Source: Candidatus Colenecus caballi (lineage in GTDB: Bacteria > Bacteroidota > Bacteroidia > Bacteroidales > Bacteroidaceae). Taken from it: a stretch of DNA of 64,000 bases. The DNA is taken from the NCBI GenBank assembly GCA_018065615.1, contig JAGHSY010000033.1, forward strand, positions 8,210 through 72,209. The letters are read 5' to 3'. Numbering within the stretch: position 1 is the first letter of the stretch; each line of letters begins with the position of its first letter. The notes below the pieces were generated by a model. The model was not told where the DNA came from. It saw only the letters and a list, made by a program, of their open reading frames with translations, and made no database searches. The position numbers and the translations under genes are program-made. Positions 4,246-62,663 of the stretch are shown one piece after another.

Positions 4246-4250
4246 CAGCC

Positions 4251-5402: not shown

Positions 5403-5977
5403 ACAGACCTTTGATTCTAGTTGGCGGCGGAGGCCACTGCAAATCAGTCATAGACGTGGCAGAAAGCGCAGGCTATTCCATTCTGGGCATACTTGACAAG
5501 CCCGAAGAAGTCGGCCGGCAGGTTCTTGCCTACAAGGTTATAGGCACCGATGAAGACATACCCCAGTATGTTGACAAAGCTGAATTTGTCATTACAGTAG
5601 GACAGATCAGAAGCAGCGACCTGCGCCACAGCATTGCACGGCGCATAGAAAAGGCAGGAGGCCATTTTGCAACAGTCATTGCCCCTGATGCATCAGTATC
5701 AGAATACGCCCAAATTGGCGAAGGGACTGTTATCCTTCACAAATGCGTAATCAATGCCGACGCCAAAATAGGACGCAACTGCATAATAAACACCATGGCC
5801 GACATTGAGCATGATGTTGAGATAGGTGATTTCTGTCACATCTCAACAGGAGTAATGGTCAACGGGATGACCAAGATTGGAAGTGACACATTCATTGGCA
5901 GCGGATCAGTGCTTTACAACTGCATTGAAATAGCCGCCGGCAGCATTATTCCTGCAGGAACAACCGTAAGAAAATGA
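5399..5977 (+). CDS. NeuD/PglD-family sugar N-acetyltransferase (left-handed beta-helix)
   Basis: LILVGGGGHCKSV N-terminal Rossmann-like part followed by a hexapeptide-repeat C-terminus. 4-nt overlap with the upstream gene. Confidence 0.8.
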   Translation: MNRPLILVGGGGHCKSVIDVAESAGYSILGILDKPEEVGRQVLAYKVIGTDEDIPQYVDKAEFVITVGQIRSSDLRHSIARRIEKAGGHFATVIAPDASVSEYAQIGEGTVILHKCVINADAKIGRNCIINTMADIEHDVEIGDFCHISTGVMVNGMTKIGSDTFIGSGSVLYNCIEIAAGSIIPAGTTVRK

Positions 5978-8114: not shown

Positions 8115-8115
8115 T

Positions 8116-8793
8116 ATGGAAAACTTACTGGTCGTCATACCCGCCCGAGGGGGCAGCAAAGGCCTGCCGGGAAAGAATATCAGAAAACTTTGCGGCAAGC
8201 CGCTGATTTGCTATTCCATTGACATTGCACGTACAATTACAAGTGATGCCAATATTTGCGTGTCAACAGATGATCAGAAGATTATTGATACTGTTGAAGA
8301 ATACGGATGCAAAGTTCCTTTTGTACGCCCGGCCCGATATGCCACTGACACTGCGACAACAAATGATGTCCTTCTTCACGCTATATCATATTATGAGAGC
8401 ATCGGACGCAAATATGACAGGATTCTGCTTCTGCAGCCCACGTCACCGTTGAGAACCGCTGCGCAGGTCAGGGAAGCCCTTTCATTGTATAGTGACAATA
8501 TTGATATGGTAGTCTCTGTAACGGAATCACATGCACCTTCAGTACTGTGCAATGACAACGGAGAAGGATTTGTTGAACTGGTTTACAACAAGAAGGCTCT
8601 TGGCAGACAATCTCTCCCAAAGTTCTATGAATTCAATGGAGCCATTTATATCATCAATGTCAAAGCATTGAAGGAGAAAGGGCTTGGCGGTTTCAACAGA
8701 CGGATCAAATATGTAATGCCAAAAGAATCATCCATTGACATTGATGACATTTATGACTTCATGCTGGTGGAATCAATCCTCACACACAAATAA
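8116..8793 (+). CDS. acylneuraminate (nonulosonate) cytidylyltransferase, CMP-sugar synthetase
   Basis: Start chosen at MENLLVVIPARGGSKGLPGKN (CTP_transf_3 signature), 1 nt after the neuC-like stop. The upstream part of ORF 7993.. overlaps the neuC-like gene. Confidence 0.85.
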   Translation: MENLLVVIPARGGSKGLPGKNIRKLCGKPLICYSIDIARTITSDANICVSTDDQKIIDTVEEYGCKVPFVRPARYATDTATTNDVLLHAISYYESIGRKYDRILLLQPTSPLRTAAQVREALSLYSDNIDMVVSVTESHAPSVLCNDNGEGFVELVYNKKALGRQSLPKFYEFNGAIYIINVKALKEKGLGGFNRRIKYVMPKESSIDIDDIYDFMLVESILTHK

Positions 8794-8802
8794 TGACAGA
8801 CT

Positions 8803-9843
8803 ATGTTTGAAAAGTACCTCATATCACAAGACAAGACTATTCTTGATGCTCTGATTGCCATCAACAGCATGGGCAGGAATGAGACTCTGACTCTGTTCGT
8901 TGAAAATTCAAATAAGGAAATCATAGGATCACTTACCGATGGCGACATACGCCGATGTCTGGTTAAGGGCATGACCGTTGACACAAAAGTCAGCGAAATA
9001 GCATTCAAGACCTTCACATACTTGAAGAACGGCGAATATGACATCGAACTGATCCACAGCGCGAAAGCAAAAGGTATAGAACTGATTCCCGTTCTTGACG
9101 ATGGAAAACATCTGATTGATGTGGTCAATCTGAAAAAACAGAAATCGCTCCTGCCCATTGATGCCGTTATCATGGCTGGAGGTAAAGGCGAACGTCTGCG
9201 TCCGCTGACTGACAAGACGCCCAAGCCATTGCTGCCAATGAACGGAAAACCAATCATCGATTATGTTGTCGAACATATCATTTCGTATGGTATTAAGGAC
9301 ATTTCCATAACTGTAAACTATCTGAAAGAACAGATTGAAGAACATTTTGCAGAACCTGTCGGCGACATTAAGGTGACAACAGTCAGCGAGCCCAGATTTC
9401 TTGGCACGATTGGCAGCATTCAGTATGTTCAGAACCTGAAAAATGATACTGTTGTCCTGATGAACAGTGATGCCATAACAGACATCAACCTTGAAGACTT
9501 TTACATACATTTCAAAGAAAATGATGCCGATATAAGCGTTGCCGCCATCCCGTATTCCATATCAGTCCCTTACGGAATTCTTGAGCTGAACGGACATGAC
9601 ATAGAAACGGTACTTGAAAAACCCACATACAATTACTATGCGAATGCCGGCATCTATCTGATAAAAAGAGACCTATTGAAACTGATTCCCAAAGACCAGT
9701 TCTTCAATGCAACAGATTTTCTTGAACTGGCAATTTCAAAAAAATACAAGGTTATCCGATTCCCGCTGAACGGGACCTGGATAGACATAGGCAACCCTCA
9801 GGAATATCAGAAGGCTATTGAATTGGTCAAACATCTGAAGTAA
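8803..9843 (+). CDS. CBS-domain + sugar-1-phosphate nucleotidyltransferase (PtmE/LgaF-like)
   Basis: N-terminal CBS pair region, then AVIMAGGKGERLRPLTDKTPKPLL (NTP_transferase G-loop). Confidence 0.8.
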   Translation: MFEKYLISQDKTILDALIAINSMGRNETLTLFVENSNKEIIGSLTDGDIRRCLVKGMTVDTKVSEIAFKTFTYLKNGEYDIELIHSAKAKGIELIPVLDDGKHLIDVVNLKKQKSLLPIDAVIMAGGKGERLRPLTDKTPKPLLPMNGKPIIDYVVEHIISYGIKDISITVNYLKEQIEEHFAEPVGDIKVTTVSEPRFLGTIGSIQYVQNLKNDTVVLMNSDAITDINLEDFYIHFKENDADISVAAIPYSISVPYGILELNGHDIETVLEKPTYNYYANAGIYLIKRDLLKLIPKDQFFNATDFLELAISKKYKVIRFPLNGTWIDIGNPQEYQKAIELVKHLK

Positions 9844-9848
9844 GAGAG

Positions 9849-10901
9849 ATGAAACATCTCATAGTTGTACATAGCCATCTTTCCTATCTTGTCATCAATC
9901 AGTATTTTCTTGACAGGAATATTGATCCAGACGATTGCCTGTTCATTGTAAATGCCCGATACAGACACTTGCCGGAAGGAAACCACTATACCAATTTCAT
10001 ATTTTTTCCTGATGAACTGCTGCCGGATGGTTTTAAGAGAGTTTTCCATAAGAACAACATCATAACCGGAATAAAGAACATAAAATACATTGAAAACAGA
10101 ATCAATGAATTCTTTCATGGTGATTTATTCCTAATGTATCTGACAACCACCAGCCTTGATTACCTGAGCGCGCTGGTTACAATGAAGCAGTGTAAAGGCT
10201 ACTATCTGATGGAAGAAGGATCGGCCTCATATTACAGGAAGGCCGAAATTCCCAAACTCTATAAGGGAGCAGCATACGGATTCGCTTTCATCCTGTCTAA
10301 GATCCTGCCCAGATTCTTTGCCTTGAAATGTTCGTCATTCTCATACGACAACAAGTACTTTCTTGGAACAATTTCCACTGCAGAAAATGCTTTTCCTGAC
10401 TTTCCGGGCGTACACATTGTCATCAATACTCCATTTACAGGAATCGAACTTGATTCTGTTCCGGATGTCATACTCTCAATTGATTCCAGCCTTATGATTT
10501 CCTTAGGAGATTTCTTTCCAAAGGAACTCTATGAGAAGATTGCCGTATTCTTCAAAAATAAAGGCTATAAGAGCATTGCCTATAAGTTCCATCCAAAATA
10601 TTTCGTATTTCCTGAACTGCTTGCGGCTTATAGAGAAGGCCTGACAAGTGTATTTGGTGAAAGCATTGTGGAACTGCCTGAAAGCAGCCAGCTTGAAAAT
10701 TATTTTCTGTCATATCCGATAGACTTCTGCTCAGACTTCTCATCAGTGGGAATCTATGCATCGAACTTTGGCAGAAAGTGTTACAGTTACAGAGATCTTG
10801 TAATGGAAACATATCCTGACAGCACTTATGACAAAGATTTCAACATTCCGAAAATAGTATTCGGATTTTATACGAAAATCAATGCATCAGAAATTCAATA
10901 A
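9849..10901 (+). CDS. hypothetical protein; candidate nonulosonic-acid (sialyl-type) transferase
   Basis: 350 aa with no family I recognise outright. It contains YYLMEEGSASYY (D/E-D/E-G) and AYKFHPKYF (HP), the two motifs shared by bacterial sialyltransferases. It lies immediately after the CMP-sugar pathway genes. The DNA is AT-rich. Confidence 0.45.
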   Translation: MKHLIVVHSHLSYLVINQYFLDRNIDPDDCLFIVNARYRHLPEGNHYTNFIFFPDELLPDGFKRVFHKNNIITGIKNIKYIENRINEFFHGDLFLMYLTTTSLDYLSALVTMKQCKGYYLMEEGSASYYRKAEIPKLYKGAAYGFAFILSKILPRFFALKCSSFSYDNKYFLGTISTAENAFPDFPGVHIVINTPFTGIELDSVPDVILSIDSSLMISLGDFFPKELYEKIAVFFKNKGYKSIAYKFHPKYFVFPELLAAYREGLTSVFGESIVELPESSQLENYFLSYPIDFCSDFSSVGIYASNFGRKCYSYRDLVMETYPDSTYDKDFNIPKIVFGFYTKINASEIQ

Positions 10902-10930
10902 TTAATTCGTACTTTCGCCAGTAATAGAAA

Positions 10931-12304
10931 ATGATTATGAAGAATATAGCAGTCGTCTTGGCAGGAGGTGTAGGAGAACGATGTGGCCTGGGTGCCCCGA
11001 AACAGTTCTTCAAGGTGGCCGGCAAAACTGTCATTGAACATACCGTTGACGTGTTCCAGAACAACAGGCACATTGATGAGATTGCTCTGGTAATAAATGC
11101 CATGTTCCAGCGTGAGATTCAGGATATGGTGACGCGCAACAAATGGTCAAAGGTCAAGAAAATCCTTCTTGGAGGAAAGGAACGTTACGAATCAAGCCTG
11201 GCCGCCATCAATGCCTATGACATGTACCCTGACTGCAACCTTATTTTCCATGACGCCGTACGTCCGCTGCTTGACGACCGTATCATTGATGACATAGTTG
11301 CCGCTCTGGACCGGTATCAGGCAATTGACGTAGCCGTACCCGCCACAGACACAATCATTCAGGTCGATGCTGACGGACAGTTCATTGAAAACATTCCCAA
11401 CCGCCGCCTTCTCAGGCGCGGCCAAACCCCACAGGCCTTCAGGCAGAAGACCATCAGGGAAGCATACGAAATTGCTCTGAAGGATCCTGATTTCGTGTCG
11501 TCCGATGACTGCGGAACCGTTGTGAAATACCTGCCACAGGTCAAAGTCTATGTGGTCAGGGGCGAGGAATCAAACATGAAGCTCACTTACAAGGAAGATT
11601 CATATCTGCTTGACAAGCTGTTCCAGCTCAGGTCAACATCTGTCCGTGACGATGCAGATCTGACAGTACTGAAAGGTAAGGTTCTTGCCGTTTTCGGAGG
11701 CAATTCAGGCATAGGTGCAGAGATCATGAAGAAGGCGGAATCATTCGGTGGAATCGCATATTCTTTCTCAAGGAGTACAACTGGAACAGACATTGCAGAC
11801 CGCAGCTCCGTCAAGGCTTGTCTGGAAAAGATTGCATCGGAACAGGGCCATATAGACTATGTGGTGAATTCGGCCGCTATACTGGTCCGCGAACCATTGG
11901 TGACCATGGACGAGAATGTCCTGTCAACTATGATAAGAACAAACTATGACGGAATGGTCAACATTGCCGTGGAAAGTTTCCCTTATCTGAAACAGAGCCA
12001 TGGCCAGCTGCTGCTGTACACATCAAGTTCATACACGCGCGGACGTGCCCTATACAGCATCTATTCATCAACAAAGGCAGCTGTAGTCAACTTCATGCAG
12101 GCACTGGCACAGGAATGGGACGCTGACGGCATACGTGTCAACGTCATGAATCCGGAACGCACCAAAACGCCAATGCGCCTGCAGAATTTCGGAAACGAGC
12201 CTGAAGGCACTCTGCTTGATGCCGCAACTGTGGCCGATGCCTCACTCAAGACACTGATATCGGACCTGACAGGTCAGGTATTTGACGTCCGCATAAAGAA
12301 ATGA
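10931..12304 (+). CDS. bifunctional cytidylyltransferase/short-chain reductase, Bcs1-like CDP-ribitol synthase
   Basis: N-terminal IspD/TarI-like VVLAGGVGERCGLGAPKQF. C-terminal SDR with FGGNSGIGAEI and the catalytic YSSTK. Confidence 0.75.
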   Translation: MIMKNIAVVLAGGVGERCGLGAPKQFFKVAGKTVIEHTVDVFQNNRHIDEIALVINAMFQREIQDMVTRNKWSKVKKILLGGKERYESSLAAINAYDMYPDCNLIFHDAVRPLLDDRIIDDIVAALDRYQAIDVAVPATDTIIQVDADGQFIENIPNRRLLRRGQTPQAFRQKTIREAYEIALKDPDFVSSDDCGTVVKYLPQVKVYVVRGEESNMKLTYKEDSYLLDKLFQLRSTSVRDDADLTVLKGKVLAVFGGNSGIGAEIMKKAESFGGIAYSFSRSTTGTDIADRSSVKACLEKIASEQGHIDYVVNSAAILVREPLVTMDENVLSTMIRTNYDGMVNIAVESFPYLKQSHGQLLLYTSSSYTRGRALYSIYSSTKAAVVNFMQALAQEWDADGIRVNVMNPERTKTPMRLQNFGNEPEGTLLDAATVADASLKTLISDLTGQVFDVRIKK

Positions 12305-13497
12305 CGGTCATGAAATTCATTGCCTACCTGATCTGCTACATAATTTATCCGTTCTCATTCCTGTTCCCACGCAGCAGGAACAAATATGCATTCGGCAGTT
12401 TCCGCGGATCGTTCAATGACAACGCCCGCTATCTGTTCATATATGCAGCCGGACATTCTGAGGGCGAAATCAGGACGGCATGGATTTCAAAGAACCGGGA
12501 CAGCGTAAGGAAAGCCCGCAGCTACGGACTCAGGGCATATTGGATTTTCAATCCCGCCGGAATCTGGTATGCGCTGACATCAAGATACTGGTTCTTCAAC
12601 TCATATACATCGGACATAATGTTCTGCCTGTCAGGCGGTGCGGTCTGTATAAACCTGTGGCACGGCGTCGGTCTGAAAAGAACAGAGTTCAACACCATAT
12701 CCGGCCCGCTTGCCGATCGTTATTCAAAGAAGAACAGGCTGGATGTATTCTACCACCCTGAATCATTCCGCCGGCCGGACTGGCTTCTTACATCCACCCC
12801 GTTCCAGACATCCATGTTCGCTAAGGCATTCCGCATTCCTGAAGACCGTTGTCTGGAATTCGGATACCCCAGAAACCGCATCCTGACATGCAGTGAAGAT
12901 GAACGCAGCAGTTTCATAAGGAAATATGAGACAACTGAAACCGGTCAGTTCATTGAAAGGCTGGCAGGATATGACAAGGTGTATGTCTATATGCCCACAT
13001 GGCGTGACTCACAACGGACAATATTCTTACAGAGCATGGACCTTGAACGGCTTAACGGCATAATGGCCGGAAAACATTCTCTGCTAATACTCAAACCGCA
13101 TGCCAACGTCATTCTGACAGACAACATACAGTCACTTTCAAATGTCATCCTCTTTGATCCGAAAATGGACATCTATCCGGTGCTGCCCTATTCCGATGTC
13201 CTGATTACCGACTATTCGTCAATCCTTTACGACTGGCTTCTCATGGAATATAAGGATGTCATACTCTACCTGTATGACTATGAGACATACGTTAAGGAAC
13301 GTGACTTCTATTATCCGTTTGACGAAAATGTGGCTGGCACAAAGGTCTATGATTTCGAATCATTGTGTTCATGTCTGGAATCAGGGGACCACGCCATGTC
13401 CGATGACGAACGCTGCAGGATTGTGGAAAAGTTCTGGGGCCGGTCAGCAGGATATGACTCATCGGAAAAGATTTTGGAATTTGTTGAAAGAATATGA
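12301..13497 (+). CDS. CDP-alditol phosphotransferase (TagB/TagF, Glyphos_transf family)
   Basis: YMPTWRDS and VLITDYSSILYDW are signature motifs of teichoic-acid-type glycerol/ribitol-phosphate transferases. Confidence 0.8.
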   Translation: MTVMKFIAYLICYIIYPFSFLFPRSRNKYAFGSFRGSFNDNARYLFIYAAGHSEGEIRTAWISKNRDSVRKARSYGLRAYWIFNPAGIWYALTSRYWFFNSYTSDIMFCLSGGAVCINLWHGVGLKRTEFNTISGPLADRYSKKNRLDVFYHPESFRRPDWLLTSTPFQTSMFAKAFRIPEDRCLEFGYPRNRILTCSEDERSSFIRKYETTETGQFIERLAGYDKVYVYMPTWRDSQRTIFLQSMDLERLNGIMAGKHSLLILKPHANVILTDNIQSLSNVILFDPKMDIYPVLPYSDVLITDYSSILYDWLLMEYKDVILYLYDYETYVKERDFYYPFDENVAGTKVYDFESLCSCLESGDHAMSDDERCRIVEKFWGRSAGYDSSEKILEFVERI

Positions 13498-14399
13498 TTT
13501 CAGTTATAATCTGCACATACAATAGAGAGAAGTACATCTATAACGTACTGAAAAGCCTTGCTGACGGCACTATGCCTGCAAACGCATATGAAATCATACT
13601 TGTTGACAACAACTGTACTGACGGAACACGTCAGGAAGTGGACCGGTTCTGTAAAGATTTCCCGAACGTACAGCTGAGATACTGTATAGAAACCAATCAG
13701 GGCCTGTCCCATGCCCGCAACAGGGGAATCCAGGAATCAGCAGGCAACATACTGGTCTATGTCGATGATGACGCAACAGTAAATGCAGAATACCTTTCAG
13801 CCTATGCCTCATGGTTTGAAGCCCACCCCGAAACCCATGCGGCAGGCGGACCAATCATTCCACATTATGAAACAGGCAGTGAACCGCGCTGGATGACCTA
13901 TTTCATAAAGAGACTCCTGACCGGATATCTGTATTTTGGAGACAAGGCCAAACCTTTCCCCGGTGACAACTACCCCGGAGGCGGAAATGCCGCATACCGC
14001 AGGGAAGTGTTTGATAAGGTCGGACTTTACAACGTCCAGCTGGGACGTAACGGTGACAGTCTGGCCGGCGGTGAGGAAAAGGACATATTCAACAAAATGA
14101 AAAAGGAAGACATGCAGTTCACATATCTTCCCGATGCTGTTCTGTATCACAGCATTCCAGCCTACAAACTGGAACCTGACTATTTCAACCGCCTGACATA
14201 CAGCATAGGTCAGAGCGAAAGGGCACGTACTTTAAAAATTGGAAAGAAAGCTTACCGTGGACGTATTCTGTCAGAGTGCAGGAAATGGGCCGCAACAATT
14301 GTATTGTGGTGTTTCTATCTTGTTACATTCAGACCGTCACGCGGAAATATGCTCATACGCTTCCGCCGCAATGTGACACGTGGCCTGACCGGAAAATAA
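13494..14399 (+). CDS. family 2 glycosyltransferase
   Basis: ISVIICTYNRE, VDNNCTDGT and the DxD-type VYVDDDA. Confidence 0.85.
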   Translation: MISVIICTYNREKYIYNVLKSLADGTMPANAYEIILVDNNCTDGTRQEVDRFCKDFPNVQLRYCIETNQGLSHARNRGIQESAGNILVYVDDDATVNAEYLSAYASWFEAHPETHAAGGPIIPHYETGSEPRWMTYFIKRLLTGYLYFGDKAKPFPGDNYPGGGNAAYRREVFDKVGLYNVQLGRNGDSLAGGEEKDIFNKMKKEDMQFTYLPDAVLYHSIPAYKLEPDYFNRLTYSIGQSERARTLKIGKKAYRGRILSECRKWAATIVLWCFYLVTFRPSRGNMLIRFRRNVTRGLTGK

Positions 14400-14978
14400 T
14401 CAGCCGAACACCTTCTCCAGCAAATCAACAAACTCCCTGTAGGCAAACGTATCCTTGAGTTCTGAGAGCGATGCCGCCAGACCGCGGTAGTGCCACTCAT
14501 GGTCTGCCTTGCCGCCAGGAGCATGGAAAAGGCTCCACAGCTTGTCTCCGTCCTTCATATAGTCCCTGTAGATGGCGCGCATGTTTGACAGCTTGTCACC
14601 CATGGCCACCATTTTGGAATCCGTTGACACTTTTGCCAGACGGTCAATTGCGGCCTGCTTGCGGTCACGCCAGCTGTCAGTCTCACTTACCCCTTCAGTG
14701 AACCTGTCACTTTCAGAATCGACAATGGCGGCAATCCTGTCACCGAATTCGGCACGGATCTGTTCAACGGTGACATCGGTGTCCTCAACCGTATCATGAA
14801 GTGCGGCGGCGGCCAGCAGTTCCTGGTCCGATGTCATGGAAGCCACAATTTCCACAGCTTCCATCGGATGTACTATGTACGGAAAACCCTTTCCGCGACG
14901 TTCAGTATTCTCATGTGCCTTGACTGCAAATACTATTGCCTTGTCAAGCAGTGCCGTATCAATGTACTTGTTTCCCAT
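14400..14978 (-). CDS. HD-domain small alarmone hydrolase (SpoT/Mesh1-like (p)ppGpp-type pyrophosphohydrolase)
   Basis: 192 aa. HPMEAVEIV, AAALHDTVEDTD and MGDKLSNMRA match the RSH hydrolase-domain motifs. The start lies 2 nt after the synthetase stop. Confidence 0.8.
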   Translation of the reverse strand: MGNKYIDTALLDKAIVFAVKAHENTERRGKGFPYIVHPMEAVEIVASMTSDQELLAAAALHDTVEDTDVTVEQIRAEFGDRIAAIVDSESDRFTEGVSETDSWRDRKQAAIDRLAKVSTDSKMVAMGDKLSNMRAIYRDYMKDGDKLWSLFHAPGGKADHEWHYRGLAASLSELKDTFAYREFVDLLEKVFG

Positions 14979-14980
14979 AC

Positions 14981-16099
14981 CTACTGTTTTTTCATGAACG
15001 GCATCCTGGCTGTCTTTTCAACCAGCCTCTGTGCCCTTGTCCTGTTATATGATGATGGTCCGTTCAGTTCATCAAAGAATGATGCCAGACCGTCTTCTCC
15101 GCCTCCGTTTTTAAGAATATGTACGATGCACAGATCCTGGACTGACACCGTCGATGAAATGATGTCAAGGTCCGTACCGCCAATTTCAAGCTTTGCCAGC
15201 TGATAGGCATCATCACTTGACTCCTTCTGCAGCTTCTCAATGTCACCAAGAGTCTTGAAACCCAGATACTTGAACATTCTCAGATACGGCATCAGGGTGT
15301 CCTGATGGATTTCGGCCTGATTGATGGCTGCAATATGGTTGTTCAGTTTGTCAAAAGGCTTCAGATTCAGGTAACTGCGGAACGTGTCGACATCAAGTGA
15401 GACCTCGTCAAAATTACCGCTGGCAACCAGAGCCTGTACCTGACGGCGGTATTCGTTGACGGCTATGCGGATGCGGCTGAACTCGTCATCGGCAAGTTCA
15501 AGCACTCCGGCCAGACGGTTCATGTTCCTCAAATGCTCGACAGGAATCTCCACATCACCCTTGTATCCGCAGTCATGGTTCATGTTGGCCCACATGTGCT
15601 GCAGGGTTGTACGCAGCTGCAGTTCCCATCGGAATTCATTTATCTCCGGATGGGCCGGATCGTGGTACAGTTTCTTTGGGACACGGCAGATGTAATGCAG
15701 TGACATGTATCCGAAACTGTCAAGAGTGTGCATCTTGCGCTTGTCAACTGAATTCTCCCAGTCAATGTCAAAGTTGTTTTCTGCAATGGCCGCAATCTTG
15801 TCCACGTCATCAGTATAGAAAGTGATGACACGTGTACCGACAATGTCCGTGATGTCACTCAGAGTCCTGTATTTGTGACCTTTCAGTTCCAGCTTGCCGG
15901 CAAGGCTCTTCTCTTCCTTGACACGCCCTTCAACTGCAGTTACAAACATGCCGTTCTGTTTGAGCGCCTGTCTTATGCAGTCCAGAATGATTTCCTTTAT
16001 CTTGACGAATGACTCATAGTTTGCACGATACTCTTCAAGTATCATCGTGCAGTGCATGTCAAGACCGTATTTTTCAAGATCGTCCTGTTCCATAAACAT
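14981..16099 (-). CDS. RelA/SpoT-synthetase-domain protein (small alarmone synthetase-like pyrophosphokinase) with ~160-aa C-terminal extension
   Basis: RVKEEKSLAGK, DIVGTRVITF, GYMSLHYI and ELQLRTTLQHMWANMNHD are the four synthetase motifs, all intact. I do not recognise the C-terminal third. Confidence 0.85.
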   Translation of the reverse strand: MFMEQDDLEKYGLDMHCTMILEEYRANYESFVKIKEIILDCIRQALKQNGMFVTAVEGRVKEEKSLAGKLELKGHKYRTLSDITDIVGTRVITFYTDDVDKIAAIAENNFDIDWENSVDKRKMHTLDSFGYMSLHYICRVPKKLYHDPAHPEINEFRWELQLRTTLQHMWANMNHDCGYKGDVEIPVEHLRNMNRLAGVLELADDEFSRIRIAVNEYRRQVQALVASGNFDEVSLDVDTFRSYLNLKPFDKLNNHIAAINQAEIHQDTLMPYLRMFKYLGFKTLGDIEKLQKESSDDAYQLAKLEIGGTDLDIISSTVSVQDLCIVHILKNGGGEDGLASFFDELNGPSSYNRTRAQRLVEKTARMPFMKKQ

Positions 16100-16884
16100 C
16101 AGATGAGATATCTGTTCCTCATTGTTTCAATATCGCGGTCTGTCATGCCGAAACACTTATGCAGATAGTCCAGCAAAGAGCCGTATCTGCTGCAGATGGC
16201 ATCAAGTCCCATCCTGAAATACTCCACATTGGCGCCGGCAAAAGTCTGGATGACCTTTTTGACCTCAATGTCTGTAACTCCCATTCTGTCACAGAGTTCC
16301 CTGACTTTGCTCGAATACTGGAAATTTGACAGGTCATAGTCAGCCACAATAGTGTCAATGTCACAGCCAAGTGCCGCAAGAACAAATGCGGCACCCATTC
16401 CGGTGCGGTCCTTGCCCTGCGAACAGTGCCACAGAATGGCACCGTCCTCATTGTCAACGACCAGACGCATGAACTTTGCATATGCAGGAACAGCACCGTC
16501 ACCAAGGCCCAGATCCATGTACATCTGTCTGGCAAAAGCCTGCACCTGCGGACGGTCGGCATACCTTATCAGCATGTCCAGCGGGTCAGCGTCATCATTC
16601 TTGAAGATTTCCTTCCAGACTTCACCGTTGGAATCAATCAACGGCATATGCAGATATCTGGCACCCGGAATCATCCGGTCCGGCGCCATTTCCACCTCAT
16701 AGTCAGAACGGAAATCAACGACAGTACGCACCCTGTAGCCATTGGCCAGCAGGTCCAGATCGGAATCCGATGCCTTTATGAGCGCACCGCAGCGTAAAAG
16801 CACCCCCGATCTGATAACGCGGCCTTCCTTATTTTTCAGACCGCCAAGACACCTGAAGTTTACAATATGTTCAGGTTCTCTCAT
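16099..16884 (-). CDS. protein-tyrosine-phosphatase-superfamily phosphatase (CX5R, Tyr_phosphatase_3-like)
   Basis: P-loop WHCSQGKDRTG. TGATG stop/start overlap with the downstream synthetase gene. Confidence 0.75.
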   Translation of the reverse strand: MREPEHIVNFRCLGGLKNKEGRVIRSGVLLRCGALIKASDSDLDLLANGYRVRTVVDFRSDYEVEMAPDRMIPGARYLHMPLIDSNGEVWKEIFKNDDADPLDMLIRYADRPQVQAFARQMYMDLGLGDGAVPAYAKFMRLVVDNEDGAILWHCSQGKDRTGMGAAFVLAALGCDIDTIVADYDLSNFQYSSKVRELCDRMGVTDIEVKKVIQTFAGANVEYFRMGLDAICSRYGSLLDYLHKCFGMTDRDIETMRNRYLI

Positions 16885-16891
16885 CAGACAA

Positions 16892-17194
16892 TCAGATTAT
16901 CTTGATGATGTTTGAGAAACCGGTAATGTCAAACACTTCCTTTACCTGGGGGTTCATGTTGGTCATGACCATGCTGCCGCCACGTGAGTTGACACTCTTC
17001 TGAAGCATGAGGAACATTCTCAGTCCCTGGCTTGAAGTGTATTCCATTGCAGTGCAGTCAAGTGTAATATCGGGTTTTTCTCCTGTCATCAGCGGTTCGA
17101 TGTCCTTCTGGAACTGGTCTGCGTTTGTGGTGTCAAGACGGCCTTCAAGCACAACATTGAATTTGTTTTCCTCCTGATTGATAGTTACATTCAT
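16892..17194 (-). CDS. STAS-domain anti-sigma-factor antagonist (SpoIIAA/RsbV-like)
   Basis: 100 aa with the conserved phospho-serine context EYTSSQGLRMF. Confidence 0.85.
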   Translation of the reverse strand: MNVTINQEENKFNVVLEGRLDTTNADQFQKDIEPLMTGEKPDITLDCTAMEYTSSQGLRMFLMLQKSVNSRGGSMVMTNMNPQVKEVFDITGFSNIIKII

Positions 17195-17228
17195 AGTAGT
17201 TTTCAGTTTATTGTTATTTGTTATTGTT

Positions 17229-17627
17229 TCATCCGATTTTCTTTATCATAGTAAGGTTGTTGCAACCGTCCTTGTACTCATAGCTGATGTCATCCATCAT
17301 CTGCTTGCACAGGAAAATTCCCAGACCGCCTATTTCACGGTCTTCGGCCGACAGGGTAATGTCAGGGTCGTCTTTGGCCAGCGGATTGAACTGGATACCC
17401 GAATCACGGAACGTTATGTAAAGATTGTCTCCTTTTATTTCCGTACCTACTTCAACGTATCCGTTTCCGTTCTCATAGGCATAATTGACTATGTTTTCAA
17501 CCACTTCTTCAATACATAATCTGAGTTTGAACTGCAGGGCAGGATCATCGACCATGTCTTCAGAAGCCATAAGAGTTTCAATGATTTGCGCAGACTTGCC
17601 GGCAATCGGATCAATCAGTACTTTCAT
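17229..17627 (-). CDS. anti-sigma-factor-type serine kinase (SpoIIAB/RsbW-like, HATPase_c_2)
   Basis: Start chosen at MKVLIDPIAG (cat at 17625-17627). N-box EEVVENIVNYA, G1 FRDSGIQFNP, G2 GGLGIFLCK. Confidence 0.85.
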   Translation of the reverse strand: MKVLIDPIAGKSAQIIETLMASEDMVDDPALQFKLRLCIEEVVENIVNYAYENGNGYVEVGTEIKGDNLYITFRDSGIQFNPLAKDDPDITLSAEDREIGGLGIFLCKQMMDDISYEYKDGCNNLTMIKKIG

Positions 17628-17699
17628 TTCGTCCTTATTTTGAATAGCGCAAAGAAAACGAAAAAAGTGCCTAAAATCAAATAATACCATATCTTTCTT

Positions 17700-17707
17700 T
17701 ATCTTTG
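17700..17707 (+). promoter_or_regulatory. candidate Bacteroidota -7 promoter box (TAnnTTTG)
   Basis: TATCTTTG lies 22 nt upstream of the lipid-kinase ATG, inside the 102-bp divergent intergenic region. Confidence 0.3.
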
Positions 17708-17729
17708 TAATACAGAAACTATTGTTGAC

Positions 17730-18629
17730 ATGTATTACATCTTTGTAATTAACGGAAGGGACGACATGCGCAGTGACATAGACTGCGACTTGAAAAGACA
17801 GCTTTATAATACCGAAATCCAATATGAAACCTACCACACGACAGGTATTGGAGACGGAATCCGTTTTGTAAGAATCTATTGTGACCTGCACCAGAATGCT
17901 GAGGTCTGTTTCATTGCATGCGGCGGAAGCGGCACTGTAAATGAGGTTGCACAAGGCATTTTCGGTTTCAGGCACAAGTCAATGGCCATAATGGCATACG
18001 GTTCGACAAATGACCTGATAAAGTATTATCCTGACAGGGACTTCCGTTCTCTGGACCGCATAATACGTGGTGAGAACACCAGACTTGACATAATCAGGGC
18101 CAATGACAACTATTCGCTGAATGTCATCAACTGCGGATTTGACGCCATGGTGGCTCACAGGGCAAACCAGTTCATTGAACGCGGAATCAAGGGTGCCAAA
18201 GGATACAGCCGCGCTGTCACCAGAAGCGTCCTGGGAAACAGGTTCAACAGAATCAGAGTCACCGCTGACGGTGAGAAGCTTAACCGGCGTTCAATTCTCA
18301 TGTGTACAATGGCCAATGCCGTTTACTGTGGAGGGCAGTTCAAATGCGCCCCATACGCAAAAGTCGATGACGGACTCATTGACCTCTGCCTGTTCAAGAC
18401 ATGCAGCATGTTCACTTTCCTGTATCTTCTGAACCATTTCAAAGACGGGTCGCATCTGACTGACAAATTTTCCAAAAGACACATCAAGTACCGTCAGGTC
18501 AGACACGTGGAACTTGACTCGGACTATCTCATTTACCTCTGTCTTGATGGCGAAACTACCGCTGCGACACATTTTGACATTGATATAATACCCGGAGCCA
18601 TCAACATGGTTCTCCCCTCAAAAGACTGA
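17730..18629 (+). CDS. diacylglycerol-kinase-family lipid kinase (YegS/BmrU-like)
   Basis: DAGK catalytic-domain layout with FIACGGSGTVNEV (GGDGT-type loop). Confidence 0.75.
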   Translation: MYYIFVINGRDDMRSDIDCDLKRQLYNTEIQYETYHTTGIGDGIRFVRIYCDLHQNAEVCFIACGGSGTVNEVAQGIFGFRHKSMAIMAYGSTNDLIKYYPDRDFRSLDRIIRGENTRLDIIRANDNYSLNVINCGFDAMVAHRANQFIERGIKGAKGYSRAVTRSVLGNRFNRIRVTADGEKLNRRSILMCTMANAVYCGGQFKCAPYAKVDDGLIDLCLFKTCSMFTFLYLLNHFKDGSHLTDKFSKRHIKYRQVRHVELDSDYLIYLCLDGETTAATHFDIDIIPGAINMVLPSKD

Positions 18630-18635
18630 TTGCAC

Positions 18636-19589
18636 ATGCTTGGAAAAAGGACTGTTACAATTGCATTGGCTATAGTCACGGCCATTGCCTTACATGCGCG
18701 TGAAACCGTCCGTTTCATGCCTGCATGGACTCCGCAGGCACAGTTTGCCGGATTCTATGTAGCTCTGGATATGGGCTTTTATGATGAAGAAGACCTTGAT
18801 GTGGTCATTGAGCACATGGGCATCAATTCATCAAAACCCGGAATTGTGAGAATAGCTGAAGGAGAGATTGACATGATAGGTTCACACCCCATCCAGGCAT
18901 TGATAGCCAGAGATGCCGGCACCAAAGTGGTCAACACGCTTCAAGTAACCCAGAATACGGGCATAATGGTTGTCAGCCACAAACCCATTGTGAATCTCCA
19001 GTCACTTGAAGGGGCAAAGATAGGCCGATGGCAGAGCGGGTTCAGTGAAATATGTGAATTGAGCTGCAAGGCCAACAACCTGAACGTAATCTGGGTTCCG
19101 TTCCTGAATGGCATAAACCTGTTCCTGTCCGGCGCCATTGACGCGACAGTGGCCATGAGCTACAATGAGTACAACCTTCTGGTGGAAGCCACGGGCGGCA
19201 TACCTGAAGAAAACTGCATACACTTCTCGGACTACGGATATGATATTCCTGAAGACGGGGTTTATGTCACCGAAGAATATTACAATACGCACAGGGAGAC
19301 CGTTGAGAAATTCAACCGCGCTACCTGCCGCGGATGGGACTACTGCATTGAGCACCCTGACAAAGCGCTTGACATTGTCATGAAATGGACCGAAAAGACT
19401 GGAATAAGGACCAACCGCTACCACCAGTCACTTATGCTCAAGAGCATGAACGGACTGATAGTGAATCCAAGGACTGGAAAAGCCGATTACAGTCCCATAC
19501 CTGAAGACAAGTTCAACAGACTGATACAGGCACTCATTGACATGCAGTACATTTCAAGTCCTACATCTTATAAGGAGTTCATAAAATGA
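18636..19589 (+). CDS. periplasmic solute-binding protein (NMT1/THI5-like, ABC-type SBP fold) with signal peptide
   Basis: MLGKRTVTIALAIVTAIALHA signal. Body resembles nitrate/sulfonate/thiamine-precursor type binding proteins. No permease or ATPase gene is adjacent. The stop overlaps the PP2C start. Confidence 0.6.
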   Translation: MLGKRTVTIALAIVTAIALHARETVRFMPAWTPQAQFAGFYVALDMGFYDEEDLDVVIEHMGINSSKPGIVRIAEGEIDMIGSHPIQALIARDAGTKVVNTLQVTQNTGIMVVSHKPIVNLQSLEGAKIGRWQSGFSEICELSCKANNLNVIWVPFLNGINLFLSGAIDATVAMSYNEYNLLVEATGGIPEENCIHFSDYGYDIPEDGVYVTEEYYNTHRETVEKFNRATCRGWDYCIEHPDKALDIVMKWTEKTGIRTNRYHQSLMLKSMNGLIVNPRTGKADYSPIPEDKFNRLIQALIDMQYISSPTSYKEFIK

Positions 19590-21484
19590 AAGCATCCGGT
19601 TCCTTTGCAAAACGGCTCAGCCTGAACATCATTTCCGCTACAGGTCTGCTGCTGATATTAGTAGCCCTTCTATTGGGTTTCTTTTCATATATTGTAAACT
19701 ACAAGTCAGCGGTAAAGGAGGCATCGGCCTCACTTGAAAACAACCTGCTTGACATAGAAAAGATGCTGACTGACGTTGAGGCCAGCACCAACAGCATAAC
19801 ATGGCTGCTGGAGAAATTCAATGACAACGGTGACGCCATCATTGACGTTGCGGAACATCTTGTCACGTCCGACACCAACATTGTGGCATGCGCCATAGGA
19901 TACGAGCCCTTTGAGTTCGATGACAATTCGGTGTATTTCTGCCCTACCGCCTTTATGGAAGGAGACCAGATCCGGTCAAAAATACTTGGAAGCGCAGACT
20001 ATGACTACCAGCTCATGGACTGGTATCTCATTCCGCGTCTGCTTGGCAAGCCGTACTGGAGCGAACCGTCATTTGATTCTGACGGATCAGGCAGACTTAT
20101 AGCATCGTACTCAAAACCGCTGTATCACGAAAACGGAGTCTTCTTCGGTGTCATCAAGGCCGATATCGACCTGAAATGGCTTACAGAAAAGGTTCAGGCA
20201 ATCAAGCCGTATGAGAACTCCATCACTGTTCTGGCCGGACGCAACGCATCGTACATAACTCACGTTGACAGCACCAAAATCCTTAACGAAACGCTGTTCA
20301 CCCAAGCACTTGAAGCCGGTGATGAAAAAGGCTTGATGGTGGCAAAGGACATGATTGCCGGCAACAGCGGTGTACAACATTTCGGCAATACCAGGGAAAA
20401 CGGCGGCATAATTGTCTATGGTCCCATGGACAACGGCTGGTCAGGTGCCATTATCTGTTCTTACAGTGACATTTACAGCGGTGTGAGAAAGGCCAATCTC
20501 ATAACACTGCTCATTGCCTTATTAAGCCTTGTGGCACTTTACTATACCGACAAATCAATCATCCAGCGTCTGACCCAGCCAATCACCGAATTCGCATATT
20601 CGGCACTGAACATAGGTCAGGGCAATTTCCACGCACGAATCCCTGAAATCAAGACTCAGGACGAACTCAGGCGGCTGCACGACGCACTCGGATACATGGA
20701 ATCGTCTATCAACAACTATATTGCCGAACTGCGCACCACAACGGCATCGAACGAACGTTTTGAAAGCGAACTGAACATTGCAAGCGCAATCCAGATGCAG
20801 ATGCTGCCCAAGGATTTCCCCAACTGTGACGAGATTGACCTGTATGCGACCCTGCATCCGGCCAAAGAGGTTGGCGGTGATTTGTACGACTTCTTCACAA
20901 ACGGGCGCAACCTGTATTTCTGCGTAGGTGACGTGTCAGGAAAGGGCGTTCCGGCTGCATTGTATATGGCTATCACACGAGCCGCATTCCGTTTCATTGC
21001 GGGCCTGGAACTGCCTGCCGAGGGTGTGGTGCAGAAAATCAACAACTCATTCTGCGACGGAAATGACAGCGGCATGTTCGTGACAATGTTTGTAGGCTGC
21101 ATCAATCTGGACACTTTGGAAATGAAATACTGCAATGCCGGACACAATCCCATCCTGATAATCAGTCCTGACGGCAAACCTGAATATCTGCATGCCAAAC
21201 CCAATCTGGCAGCCGGCCTGTTTGAGGACTTCCCGTACCAGGGTGAAACAATGCAGCTGGAAAAAGGATCCAGACTGGTCATTTATACCGATGGAGTCAC
21301 TGAAGCTGAAGACAGGGTCAAGAACCTGTACGGTGAGGAACGTCTGGAGCAGTTTGCAGCCAAGGAAGACACCGCAGAGGATTCTGTCAGCTTCCTTACC
21401 AATCTGGCCGCTTCAATCAAGTCGTTCACACTGGACAATGACCAGAATGATGACATAACCATGATGTCCATCAGACTGAAATGA
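19586..21484 (+). CDS. membrane sensor PP2C/SpoIIE-family serine phosphatase (RsbU-like) with periplasmic sensor domain and HAMP-like linker
   Basis: Two TM segments flank a ~270-aa extracytoplasmic region. PP2C motifs EVGGDLYDFF, CVGDVSGKGVPAALYM, YCNAGHNP, VIYTDGVTEA and NDDITMMSIR. Confidence 0.88.
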   Translation: MKASGSFAKRLSLNIISATGLLLILVALLLGFFSYIVNYKSAVKEASASLENNLLDIEKMLTDVEASTNSITWLLEKFNDNGDAIIDVAEHLVTSDTNIVACAIGYEPFEFDDNSVYFCPTAFMEGDQIRSKILGSADYDYQLMDWYLIPRLLGKPYWSEPSFDSDGSGRLIASYSKPLYHENGVFFGVIKADIDLKWLTEKVQAIKPYENSITVLAGRNASYITHVDSTKILNETLFTQALEAGDEKGLMVAKDMIAGNSGVQHFGNTRENGGIIVYGPMDNGWSGAIICSYSDIYSGVRKANLITLLIALLSLVALYYTDKSIIQRLTQPITEFAYSALNIGQGNFHARIPEIKTQDELRRLHDALGYMESSINNYIAELRTTTASNERFESELNIASAIQMQMLPKDFPNCDEIDLYATLHPAKEVGGDLYDFFTNGRNLYFCVGDVSGKGVPAALYMAITRAAFRFIAGLELPAEGVVQKINNSFCDGNDSGMFVTMFVGCINLDTLEMKYCNAGHNPILIISPDGKPEYLHAKPNLAAGLFEDFPYQGETMQLEKGSRLVIYTDGVTEAEDRVKNLYGEERLEQFAAKEDTAEDSVSFLTNLAASIKSFTLDNDQNDDITMMSIRLK

Positions 21485-62635: not shown

Positions 62636-62643
62636 TATTTTTG
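62636..62643 (+). promoter_or_regulatory. candidate Bacteroidota -7 promoter box (TAnnTTTG)
   Basis: TATTTTTG lies 20 nt upstream of the trmH-like ATG. Confidence 0.3.
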
Positions 62644-62663
62644 CACAGTATATTTAAAAAATA

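Follow-up and report, generated by a model that had tools for sequence, protein, structure and literature searches.

What does a partner switch control when it is encoded beside an alarmone synthetase and an alarmone hydrolase, with no sigma factor, the usual target of such phosphorylation-driven switches, in sight? This question is raised by two divergent operons in a 64-kb window (the whole stretch of 64,000 nucleotides analysed here) of the Candidatus Colenecus caballi genome. The minus-strand operon opens with the gene for an RsbW/SpoIIAB-type serine kinase of 132 aa (17229-17627; HATPase_c_2 4e-21, with matches to the NCBIfam RsbW and SpoIIAB models); the mechanical extent of this ORF, to a GTG at 17975, was rejected in favour of an ATG start because the median orthologue length is 132 aa. 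Downstream on the same strand lie genes for a single-domain STAS protein of the anti-sigma-antagonist type with a serine in the motif YTSSQGL (16892-17194, 100 aa; STAS 4e-18, TIGR00377 1e-21), a CX5R phosphatase of the Y_phosphatase3 family (16099-16884, 261 aa; Pfam 2.9e-57), a small alarmone synthetase (SAS; 14981-16099, 372 aa) and, last in the operon, a small alarmone hydrolase (SAH) with an HD_4 domain (14400-14978, 192 aa; Pfam HD_4 2.9e-20). From their coordinates, these genes are separated by 34 nt, 7 nt, a 1-nt TGATG overlap and 2 nt. Beyond a divergent intergenic region of 102 bp (17628-17729), which contains what we take to be a Bacteroides-type TAnnTTTG box (17700-17707, 22 nt upstream of the plus-strand ATG), the plus strand encodes a YegS/DAGK-like kinase (17730-18629, 299 aa; YegS_C 1.8e-24, DAGK_cat 7e-11), an NMT1/THI5-type periplasmic solute-binding protein (18630-19589, 319 aa; NMT1 5e-31) and a membrane sensor phosphatase with PDC/dCache, HAMP and PP2C (SpoIIE) domains (19586-21484, 632 aa; SpoIIE 7e-48, MCP-like PDC 1.5e-17, HAMP 2.7e-6). 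An earlier note on this DNA had described the five minus-strand genes with their spacings, the 102-bp spacer and the PP2C gene as third in the divergent operon; all of these were correct (the genes confirmed, by coordinates and domains, were counted as nine), and the catalytic motifs are intact. The window is otherwise ordinary chromosome, with queA, folK, metK, purD, mutS, leuS and polA among its genes.

That the 64 kb hold no sigma-factor gene, as had been claimed, was borne out in two ways. No sigma Pfam match was found among the ~50 main ORFs of the window, and phmmer probes with RpoE, SigF and SigB against all of its six-frame ORFs gave nothing below E=1, while the same probes pick up ECF sigmas elsewhere. 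When the search was extended to 160 surveyed loci, sigma-like ORFs appeared in only two of them. To our knowledge, SigB/SigF-type sigma factors are absent from Bacteroidota.

The switch components themselves are conserved. In the kinase orthologue alignment, E41, N45, D75, G77 and the GGLG motif are invariant and the N, G1 and G2 boxes are conserved; the closest solved structures in the PDB search are SpoIIAB and RsbW. The closest solved relative of the STAS protein is RsbV (6m36_B, 1.4e-10), and the second serine of YTSSQGL aligns with the serine of the RsbV DSTGL motif. The SS..GL motif, including this serine at the RsbV phospho-serine position, is invariant in 50 sequences. In the sensor phosphatase the metal-binding aspartate motifs are invariant and the sensor part varies across orthologues; the protein matches the NCBIfam SiaA model weakly (2e-16, far below cut-off). 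The suggestion that this divergently encoded PP2C protein is the third switch component is upheld by two observations. It shares strand and operon with kinase, STAS and SAS in a close relative (L001) and many other loci, and Cache-HAMP-PP2C~kinase fusions of 703-778 aa occur beside STAS and SAS in nine loci. Where present, the NMT1-type gene lies directly upstream of the PP2C gene (17/52 genome loci and 6/36 metagenome loci), and its product likely brings the sensor phosphatase its ligand. Three proteins count as accessory: the CX5R phosphatase, the YegS-like kinase and an APH-like kinase encoded in other genomes. The CX5R phosphatase, with HCxxGKDRTG invariant among orthologues and PDB matches to 8dhi (9e-26) and MptpB (3e-10), is found in 23/52 well-flanked genome loci versus only 4/36 metagenome loci, and the YegS/DAGK-like kinase lies within the module in 5/52 and 13/36, respectively.

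The two alarmone enzymes are likewise intact. The Pfam RelA_SpoT match to the SAS (1.2e-16) covers aa 58-182 only, and none of the Syn motif residues varies among 120 homologues (R59/K61/S65/K69, D85/G88/R90, G130-Y131-S133-H135, E159/Q161/R163 and H175/Y179/K180). Its catalytic part (aa 1-221; 15437-16099, minus strand) has a RelQ/RelP-like fold according to Pfam, PDB matches and AF2/Foldseek: sequence matches in the PDB are RelQ and RelP (3e-12), phmmer against solved structures up to E=1 returned nothing beyond RelQ/RelP-type synthetases, and for the AF2 model (pLDDT 89) the best Foldseek matches are SAS1 and RelP (E ~1e-9, TM 0.7-0.8). The remaining residues (aa 222-372; 14981-15436, minus strand, with the stop codon at 14981-14983) form a mostly helical domain of 150 aa in the AF2 model (pLDDT 92.8, pTM 0.88), which has no match in Pfam, no PDB profile match and no structural counterpart in either PDB (best E 4.5) or BFVD (best E 1.8). 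Searching 1.84e9 representatives by phmmer yielded only 98 clusters with this domain, mostly SAS-fused proteins or apparent fragments; among the listed matches, one apparent chimera and three multi-stretch proteins of great length depart from this pattern. Its IAAINQAE and TDLDII motifs are nearly invariant, and N260, Q261, E263, D310, D312 and R355 are invariant polar residues. The C-terminal domain is thus real, conserved and private to this SAS family. The earlier note put it forward as a candidate docking domain for the kinase or the STAS protein, which it may be; the PDB, BFVD and profile searches gave no hint of a partner. The SAH is closest among solved proteins to Lmo0812, SAHs, MESH1 and the Rel hydrolase domain, and its HD, ED and D..N motifs are conserved in 33 orthologues.

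Is the proximity of switch and alarmone genes peculiar to this genome? We surveyed 80 GTDB species-representative loci anchored on the SAS, 52 of which are well flanked (4 kb or more to either side). STAS accompanied the SAS in 46 of these 52, the kinase in 46, SAH in 40 and PP2C in 32; across all 80 loci the counts were 66, 63, 63 and 45. A reciprocal survey of 36 well-flanked metagenome loci, recovered by kinase motifs only, found STAS in 34, SAS in 31, SAH in 30 and PP2C in 28. Conservation of the adjacency outside the source genome is therefore strongly positive from either anchor. The genes occur in at least 12 arrangements, all of which keep the set, and even a distant SAS branch (~35% identity) has the order SAS-SAH-STAS with the serine motif conserved. 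Hundreds of gut Bacteroidales species carry the module, as do some other gut bacteria, where the labels Akkermansia and Fibrobacter of some loci depend on MAG binning. Part of the synteny reflects shared descent, since most loci come from related Bacteroidales MAGs; clustering across hundreds of species is beyond chance.

Such clustering could arise if the SAS and SAH merely shared a stress regulon or operon with a switch that controls an unlinked target, either a sigma factor or another enzyme, without wiring at the protein level. The sigma search covered the window and the surveyed loci, which leaves room for such a target elsewhere in the genome; a minority of loci split the two gene sets, and the SAS sometimes lies 2-5 kb from the switch genes within one locus. 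STAS and kinase are both missing within 8 kb in 6/52 well-flanked SAS loci, and the SAS is missing within 7 kb in 5/36 well-flanked kinase loci. Nevertheless, we consider this explanation improbable: in well-flanked loci the kinase subfamily nearly always sits beside the SAS (31/36), the association outlasts the rearrangements, a sigma gene is not a recurrent neighbour, and Bacteroidota, as noted above, appear to be without the relevant sigma factors. It is also opposed by a fusion of kinase, SAS and C-terminal domain (521 aa), which is retained across ~18% sequence divergence. Three copies of this fusion turned up: two on separate contigs of a single NCBI metagenome assembly, the third in a JGI sample. 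They share 81-82% identity in a gap-free alignment, and we therefore rejected an assembly error as the source of the fusion and regard it as an inherited gene. No STAS or SAH was found near it at the two readable loci. We found no residues that discriminate the SAS of loci with fused kinases from that of loci with unfused kinases, and therefore no co-variation signal. Taken together, two-way adjacency, the shuffling of gene order and the kinase~SAS fusion support the earlier proposal that a sigma-less switch may be functionally wired to the synthetase/hydrolase pair.

The SAS and SAH could instead form the core of a toxin-antitoxin or abortive-infection system of the FaRel-ATfaRel kind, in which the SAS poisons the cell via (pp)pApp/ppGpp or tRNA pyrophosphorylation, the SAH is a type IV antitoxin, and the partner switch is an accessory trigger or safety catch. 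An SAS gene followed directly by an SAH gene is a known toxSAS architecture, as in FaRel-ATfaRel (PMC7229694), and in our family the SAH gene is directly downstream of the SAS in most loci (2 nt apart here, adjacent in about 77-83%). In addition, the SAS domain partially matches the PADLOC candidate family PDC-S33 (7e-17, aa 18-171), TIR, LRR and RyR genes adjoin one distant family member (L083), and the apparent cross-phylum spread is consistent with mobility. However, PADLOC matches none of the other components, the housekeeping chromosome of the window is devoid of mobile-element and defence genes, and an extracytoplasmic Cache domain with a solute-binding protein fits the sensing of a nutrient or ligand rather than of phage. 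Moreover, the closest solved proteins by both sequence and fold are the housekeeping RelQ/RelP and not CapRel, the sole toxSAS family to appear in the fold search, where it matched more weakly. Finally, SAH is missing from 12/52 well-flanked SAS loci, including close relatives (L002-L010); most SAH-less loci keep STAS and kinase, and the link of the SAS with the switch is therefore closer than its link with SAH. We thus regard a toxSAS core as unlikely.

Based on gene context, we propose that this is probably a sigma-independent partner-switching module with a dedicated small alarmone synthetase as its output and SAH for turnover. How the switch would reach the synthetase can be pictured in three ways. 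We tentatively prefer the classical geometry with the SAS in the place of sigma, in which the kinase would bind and hold the SAS, probably in an off state. An extracytoplasmic ligand would activate the PP2C protein, which would dephosphorylate STAS-P; free STAS would then capture the kinase and release the SAS, whose burst of synthesis would yield a purine nucleotide with a 3' pyrophosphate, (p)ppGpp being the likeliest candidate ahead of (p)ppApp or another product, and the co-expressed SAH would reset the signal. Our second choice, only somewhat less likely, is the SiaC/SiaD or HsbA/HsbD geometry, in which STAS itself binds the SAS and modulates it by its phosphorylation state. Phosphorylation of the SAS by the kinase comes third and seems doubtful.

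Signalling might also run in reverse, with the SAS alarmone as an input bound by STAS, kinase or C-terminal domain and the output elsewhere. Some STAS domains are known to bind nucleotides, and the polar residues that never vary in the C-terminal domain could bind a ligand instead of contacting a protein. We nevertheless think reversal very improbable, as the membrane Cache-PP2C protein already provides an input, the cluster has no other conserved output gene, and a co-encoded nucleotide synthetase is the output in every characterised non-sigma switch compared here (PMC7647112). With the SAS as output, the module would offer a route, so far undescribed, by which an external signal could elicit an alarmone response. 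The earlier note knew of no described partner-switch-to-alarmone circuit; in agreement, a full-text literature search found no partner switch linked to an RSH enzyme.

RsbU/RsbV/RsbW-sigmaB and SpoIIE/SpoIIAA/SpoIIAB-sigmaF of Bacillus use the same three protein families with a conserved phospho-serine position; they differ in their order, STAS-kinase-sigma against the usual kinase-STAS-output here, and in their sigma factor, which our module has neither in the operon, nor in the window, nor as a recurrent neighbour. By sequence and by fold, aa 20-220 of our SAS come closest to RelQ and RelP (SAS1/SAS2) of Firmicutes; the protein has all synthetase motifs and, unlike them, adds the conserved 150-aa C-terminal domain without known relative. 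RelQ and RelP are regulated through transcription and allosterically, by pppGpp or RNA, and we know of no dedicated signalling module that governs them. FaRel-ATfaRel differs from the present module, which is chromosomal, outside any defence island and accompanied by a complete sensor/kinase/STAS pathway.

Partner switches that drive second-messenger synthetases are known, with SiaABC acting on SiaD (PMC7647112); the same paper adds HsbR/HsbA acting on HsbD, BgrSTUWV on BgrR and MtT on MtG. In the Moorella thermoacetica stressosome output described there, the RsbT/RsbW-type kinase MtT directly binds and modulates the nucleotide synthetase MtG, and by analogy our kinase~SAS fusion suggests an MtT-MtG-like geometry with the kinase acting directly on the synthetase; MtT-MtG differs in its RsbR/RsbS scaffold and its diguanylate cyclase output. 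According to the same paper, the Pseudomonas HptB-HsbR-HsbA-HsbD pathway also controls a second-messenger synthetase through a canonical STAS protein (HsbA) and a PP2C/HATPase_c_2 fusion (HsbR), a fusion type that recurs in the nine loci above. Its input passes through a receiver domain and phosphorelay, whereas ours is an extracytoplasmic Cache-HAMP; the pathway ends in a diguanylate cyclase, and FlgM is a further target of HsbA. SiaABCD of Pseudomonas aeruginosa resembles our module in combining, within one operon, a membrane HAMP-PP2C protein, an RsbW-like kinase, a phosphorylatable antagonist-like protein and a nucleotide synthetase (PMC7647112; PMC8457831), and neither system includes a sigma factor. 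In Sia, the antagonist SiaC is a DUF1987 protein phosphorylated on threonine and binds a GGDEF diguanylate cyclase that makes c-di-GMP, whereas here a canonical STAS protein with a serine accompanies a RelA/SpoT-type synthetase and a hydrolase, and the one fusion that joins the enzyme to a switch component involves the kinase and not STAS.

The partner-switching and alarmone genes of the window (ORFs at 14400-21484) form two divergent operons separated by 102 bp. On the minus strand, an RsbW/SpoIIAB-type kinase (17229-17627; with the ATG start it has 132 aa, the median length of its orthologues) is followed after 34 nt by a STAS protein (16892-17194) and after a further 7 nt by a CX5R phosphatase of the Y_phosphatase3 family (16099-16884), which overlaps by 1 nt the gene of a 372-aa RelA/SpoT-synthetase protein, here called SAS for small alarmone synthetase (14981-16099). 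After another 2 nt comes an HD_4 small alarmone hydrolase (SAH, 14400-14978). The plus-strand operon opens with a YegS/DAGK-like kinase (17730-18629) and continues with an NMT1-type solute-binding protein (18630-19589) and a membrane PDC/dCache-HAMP-PP2C phosphatase (19586-21484); an EamA transporter gene lies downstream of these three. Genes and domains are as the earlier note had described them, and every domain assignment of the module proteins passed curated thresholds. The rest of the window is ordinary chromosome, with queA, folK, a capsule-type sugar cluster, metK, GH31 enzymes, purD, mutS, leuS, a PorZ-like gene and polA.

Several features of the surrounding sequence deserve mention in their own right. 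At 14397-14402 two stop codons meet with zero spacer, that of the plus-strand GT2 gene, which ends at 14399, and that of SAH on the minus strand, which ends at 14400, leaving no space for a terminator between these two convergent operons. Bacteroidota promoters differ from the sigma-70 consensus, and inspection by eye revealed a TATCTTTG box at 17700-17707, 22 nt 5' of the ATG of the YegS-like gene, which fits what we take to be the Bacteroides -7 consensus, TAnnTTTG; no exact TAnnTTTG counterpart for the minus-strand operon was seen by eye in the 102-bp intergenic sequence. The plus-strand sugar cluster (3037-14399) includes NeuB, DegT, PglD-like and UDP-GlcNAc 2-epimerase genes, a fused IspD and short-chain dehydrogenase of the CDP-ribitol-synthase type (10931-12304) and a TagF-like glycerophosphotransferase (12301-13497), which suggest a polyol-phosphate-containing capsule in a Bacteroidaceae genome. 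The last 4 kb of the window (60001-64000), spanning the PorZ-like gene, a SpoU methylase and a polA fragment, have a GC content of 0.38-0.39, compared with ~0.49 elsewhere.

The proteins of the switch resemble their counterparts in RsbU/V/W systems. The PP2C protein matches SpoIIE (Pfam, 7e-48), and its metal-binding motifs (GGDLYD, GDVSGKG, YTDG..EA and DDIT) are invariant in 44 sequences. The kinase matches HATPase_c_2 (Pfam, 4e-21) with invariant N, G1 and G2 box residues, and its best matches in the PDB are SpoIIAB and RsbW. The STAS protein, which matches TIGR00377 (1e-21), has RsbV and SpoIIAA as its closest solved relatives, and the second serine of its YTSSQGL motif aligns with the serine of the RsbV motif DSTGL and is invariant in 50 sequences. 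The closest solved relatives of the CX5R phosphatase are 8dhi and MptpB, and those of SAH are SAHs, MESH1 and the Rel hydrolase domain. Across orthologues there is little or no variation at the STAS serine or at the catalytic residues of the five enzymes. The locus combines what defines a partner switch, namely a PP2C phosphatase, a HATPase_c_2 kinase, a single-domain STAS protein with a phosphorylatable residue and the genetic linkage of all three, and may run a cycle of STAS phosphorylation with partner exchange, as RsbU/V/W systems do.

The classical target of such a switch was not found. Neither Pfam nor phmmer searches with RpoE, SigF and SigB (queries that detected ECF sigmas in other loci, a positive control) revealed a sigma-like ORF in the 64-kb window, in agreement with the earlier note. 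Of the 160 related loci, just 2 have sigma-like ORFs, so that a sigma factor as the sequestered target is encoded neither in the window nor as a recurrent neighbour. Similarly, GGDEF had no match among the 9 module proteins or ~50 main window ORFs, and no cyclase was found among the recurrent neighbour families, identified via similarity to window proteins or Pfam, of 80 genome loci (the best 80 of at least 525).

The enzyme encoded beside the switch is a small alarmone synthetase with an unusual architecture. RelA_SpoT is its sole Pfam match (61.4 bits against a cut-off of 27), with no HD hydrolase, TGS or ACT domain, and its Syn motifs are invariant in 120 sequences. By sequence, the closest solved relatives of residues 20-220 are RelQ and RelP. 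An AlphaFold2 model built from 120 homologues (pLDDT 89) agrees, superposing up to about residue 221 on SAS1/RelQ and RelP (5ded, 2be3 and 6ex0; Foldseek E ~1e-9, TM 0.7-0.8), while the match to CapRel is weaker. Based on this likeness to RelQ and RelP, the product is most likely (p)ppGpp; (p)ppApp as a product or tRNA as a target is possible. SAS departs from the single-domain form of ~200-250 aa in having an extra folded C-terminal domain, conserved throughout the family. This domain (residues 222-372) is separate and mostly helical, was modelled alone with a pLDDT of 92.8 and a pTM of 0.88, and carries two nearly invariant motifs, IAAINQAE and TDLDII.

Among 1.84 billion representative proteins, phmmer found the C-terminal domain in just 98 clusters. 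Apart from an apparent chimera (P0124) and three very long proteins with multi-stretch hits, these consist of SAS proteins of 350-390 aa and what look like fragments; P0124 and the repetitive P0161, the sole one of the three giants inspected, were discounted as other carriers, and we rejected the idea of a module shared with other effectors. We likewise rejected a sigma mimic or a known fold, as the domain has no structural or profile relative: Foldseek with the domain model found no match (lowest E 4.5 in the PDB and 1.8 in BFVD), the best hit of a PDB profile search had an E of 0.81, and Pfam at E up to 0.1 returned only Emaravirus ABC_AB (E 0.02, 15.5 bits against a cut-off of 27.5). We conclude from its near-exclusive occurrence on SAS proteins and its lack of any known relative that the C-terminal domain is real, conserved and private to the SAS family.

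Bacteroidales of the rumen and hindgut hold a large SAS family. More than 6,800 SAS homologues, nearly all of 360-375 aa, were scored, and at least 525 SAS-encoding loci turned up when each GTDB species was scanned through a single genome. The best 80 were kept, mostly from rumen, hindgut and gut Bacteroidales MAGs and a few labelled as Akkermansia, Verrucomicrobiales or Fibrobacter. In a reciprocal survey, metagenome contigs were scanned with the motifs of the kinase alone. Only loci flanked on either side of the query gene by 4 kb or more were counted, 52 found via SAS (from the best 80) and 36 via the kinase. The kinase and the STAS gene each accompany SAS in 46 of the 52 loci; starting from the kinase, SAS is present in 31 of 36 and STAS in 34. 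SAH follows with 40/52 and 30/36 (SAS and kinase loci, respectively), PP2C with 32/52 and 28/36, the CX5R phosphatase with 23/52 and 4/36, and the NMT1-type binding protein with 17/52 and 6/36. STAS is the commonest gene immediately upstream of SAS. With a few STAS genes per 3-Mb genome, the chance of one lying within 8 kb of a given gene is ~3%, a rough estimate, not a computed value. The adjacency described in the earlier note, which had named a lack of conservation outside this genome as grounds for refutation, is therefore conserved well beyond it, and in both directions of search.

Gene order within the module is fluid, with at least 12 arrangements, e.g., KIN-STAS-SAS-SAH, SAS-SAH-KIN-STAS-PTP and KIN-NMT1-PP2C-STAS-PTP-SAS-SAH (KIN, RsbW-like kinase; PTP, CX5R phosphatase). 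L001, the nearest relative among the genome loci kept, has the last of these, with all seven genes on one strand, and the divergent two-operon split in the window is thus a local rearrangement. A distant SAS branch (~35% identity) has the order SAS-SAH-STAS, with the serine motif intact and without a nearby kinase. At ~60% identity, the family is also found in loci labelled Akkermansia/Verrucomicrobiales (L014, L017, L023, L028 and L076) and Fibrobacter (L033 and L035), most of which have STAS and the kinase near SAS, the contig-truncated L035 being an exception. These MAGs come from the same horse and ruminant gut samples, and the occurrence of the family in them points to binning errors or else to horizontal transfer among gut bacteria.

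Two further kinases recur in these neighbourhoods. The YegS/DAGK-like kinase, present in 5 of the 52 SAS loci, lies just upstream of the RsbW-like kinase and inside the module in 13 of the 36 kinase loci, and is probably an accessory component, not a chance neighbour. An APH-like phosphotransferase (PF01636, HGDxxxxN...DxGDF), of which there is none in the window, is a frequent extra member (31/52 and 23/36). It can stand alone (~279 aa, e.g., L012:8820-9659) or form the C-terminus of SAH, as in 18 genome loci (~471 aa, including L011:9116-10546, L021 and L025); in L096, L099, L106, L107 and L110 the YegS/DAGK-like kinase lies between such a fusion and the RsbW-like kinase. The fusion of SAH to an APH-like small-molecule kinase hints at further nucleotide chemistry.

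Natural fusions tie the parts of the module together. In 9 loci, beside STAS and SAS, a Cache-HAMP-PP2C protein and an RsbW-like kinase form one chain of 703-778 aa (L039:2512-4821, L044:5420-7537, L071:10516-12852 and six more), indicating that the divergently encoded PP2C of the window is part of the switch, the third component that the earlier note had taken it to be. A second fusion, the only one found between the enzyme and a switch protein, joins the kinase to SAS with its C-terminal domain in three 521-aa proteins (P0132, P0233 and P0234; Pfam PF13581 and PF04607), whose sources are one JGI sample and a single NCBI metagenome assembly, the latter with two contigs. The three are 81-82% identical in a gapless alignment, with substitutions across both halves and the linker. 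This pattern is that of a gene inherited and kept by selection rather than of faulty assembly, and it argues for physical coupling of kinase and synthetase. Direct binding of SAS by a switch protein, altering its activity, thereby gains indirect support. In the two loci read (L081:8001-9566, P0132; L082:2282-3847, P0233), the fusion gene stands alone, with an MFS transporter gene on one side and, downstream, a gene that converges on it and in L082 encodes a peptidase S9, and neither STAS nor SAH was found within the flanks. Comparison of SAS sequences revealed no residues separating fused-kinase from unfused-kinase loci and no separate clade, and among the top 120 matches to a concatenated STAS and SAS query there was no STAS-SAS fusion. 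That the genes are only transcribed together while the switch acts on an unlinked target is made improbable by the kinase-SAS fusion and by the reciprocal synteny. Overall, conserved linkage and fusions support, at the level of comparative genomics, the earlier proposal of a switch without a sigma factor wired to SAS and SAH.

A toxSAS/SAH toxin-antitoxin or defence module would account for the tight pairing of SAS and SAH, which are 2 nt apart here and adjacent in 40/52 and 30/36 of the well-flanked loci. It would also fit a partial match by PADLOC of the SAS domain to the candidate family PDC-S33, and one distant SAS member in a TIR/LRR context. However, SAS is linked more tightly to STAS and the kinase than to SAH, its best sequence and structural matches are RelQ and RelP, with CapRel weaker, the chromosomal context is that of housekeeping genes, and the input is a ligand sensor. 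We therefore consider this alternative unlikely. A known defence system is not supported, as the partial PDC-S33 match is the only one that PADLOC returned. The distant member itself (P0201, L083:8001-9077) is 27% identical in the C-terminal domain and has no switch genes; its neighbours are TIR-, LRR- and RyR-domain genes and a 1675-aa ORF, which looks like a defence-type context.

We propose that PP2C would be controlled by an extracytoplasmic ligand, which the NMT1-type binding protein may deliver, that PP2C and the kinase would together set the phosphorylation state of the STAS serine, that this state would decide the activity of SAS, and that SAH would remove the SAS product. The opposite direction, with the alarmone as the input, seems very improbable to us. 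As for how the signal might reach the enzyme, we tentatively favour the classical geometry, in which the kinase would hold SAS until dephosphorylated STAS captures the kinase and frees the enzyme, since the only enzyme-switch fusion involves the kinase. Somewhat less likely, yet well possible, is a SiaC/SiaD-like geometry with STAS binding SAS directly, given that STAS most often lies immediately upstream of SAS and that STAS is retained in the distant branch, where no kinase is nearby. A third option, in which the kinase would phosphorylate SAS, appears doubtful.

Taken as a whole, our reading, which we hold to be slightly more probable than not, is that an extracellular ligand can trigger alarmone signalling independently of the ribosome in gut Bacteroidales and in some bacteria labelled Verrucomicrobiota and Fibrobacterota, by way of a Cache-HAMP-PP2C protein that flips a STAS/kinase switch, which in turn directly gates a dedicated RelQ-like SAS by contact between the proteins. 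Such a system would be without precedent both as a partner switch with an RSH target and as a SAS with a dedicated post-translational pathway, and its orphan C-terminal domain would represent a new fold for regulation or docking. To our knowledge, small alarmone synthetases are otherwise controlled by transcription and by allosteric effects of pppGpp or RNA, which leaves their activation largely an open question. A dedicated pathway from membrane sensor through phosphatase, STAS protein and kinase would, if true, add a new principle of regulation to the (p)ppGpp field, one that a specialist in alarmones or partner switching would find surprising. Based on the abundance of the SAS family, the module may govern entry into slow growth or persistence, and may do so for major fibre-degrading gut bacteria in response to an external metabolite. 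It also makes the activation of a small alarmone synthetase directly accessible to experiment, with a compact five-protein soluble system, a natural kinase-synthetase fusion for structures and an orphan domain.

A full-text literature search, which most subscription journals lie outside, found no paper in which RSH enzymes are linked to partner switches or STAS proteins, and within that reach agrees with the earlier note, which knew of no such circuit. The toxSAS survey of Jimmy et al. (2020) does not refer to STAS, anti-sigma or Bacteroidetes, the listing of Atkinson et al. (2011) has no SAS for Bacteroidia, and Kaur et al. (2020) concerns unrelated systems. Non-sigma outputs of partner switching are known for SiaABC acting on SiaD, HptB-HsbR-HsbA on HsbD, BgrSTUWV on BgrR and the switch kinase MtT on MtG, and the output is in all cases a diguanylate cyclase (PMC7647112).

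The module described here differs from the classical partner switch, whose target is a sigma factor, in that no sigma-factor gene accompanies it in the window. As in systems of the SiaABCD or HsbR-HsbA-HsbD type, PP2C, kinase and phospho-antagonist are co-encoded with an output enzyme, but the candidate output here is an RSH synthetase rather than a GGDEF cyclase. The PP2C-kinase layout is similar to that of HsbR, with an extracytoplasmic sensor in place of the receiver domain, and SAS is like RelQ and RelP in its catalytic part but is not single-domain. A partner switch acting on a second-messenger synthetase is thus known; if our reading is true, such non-sigma outputs extend from c-di-GMP to alarmone synthesis, and what would be new is the output class, an alarmone synthetase, together with its orphan domain.
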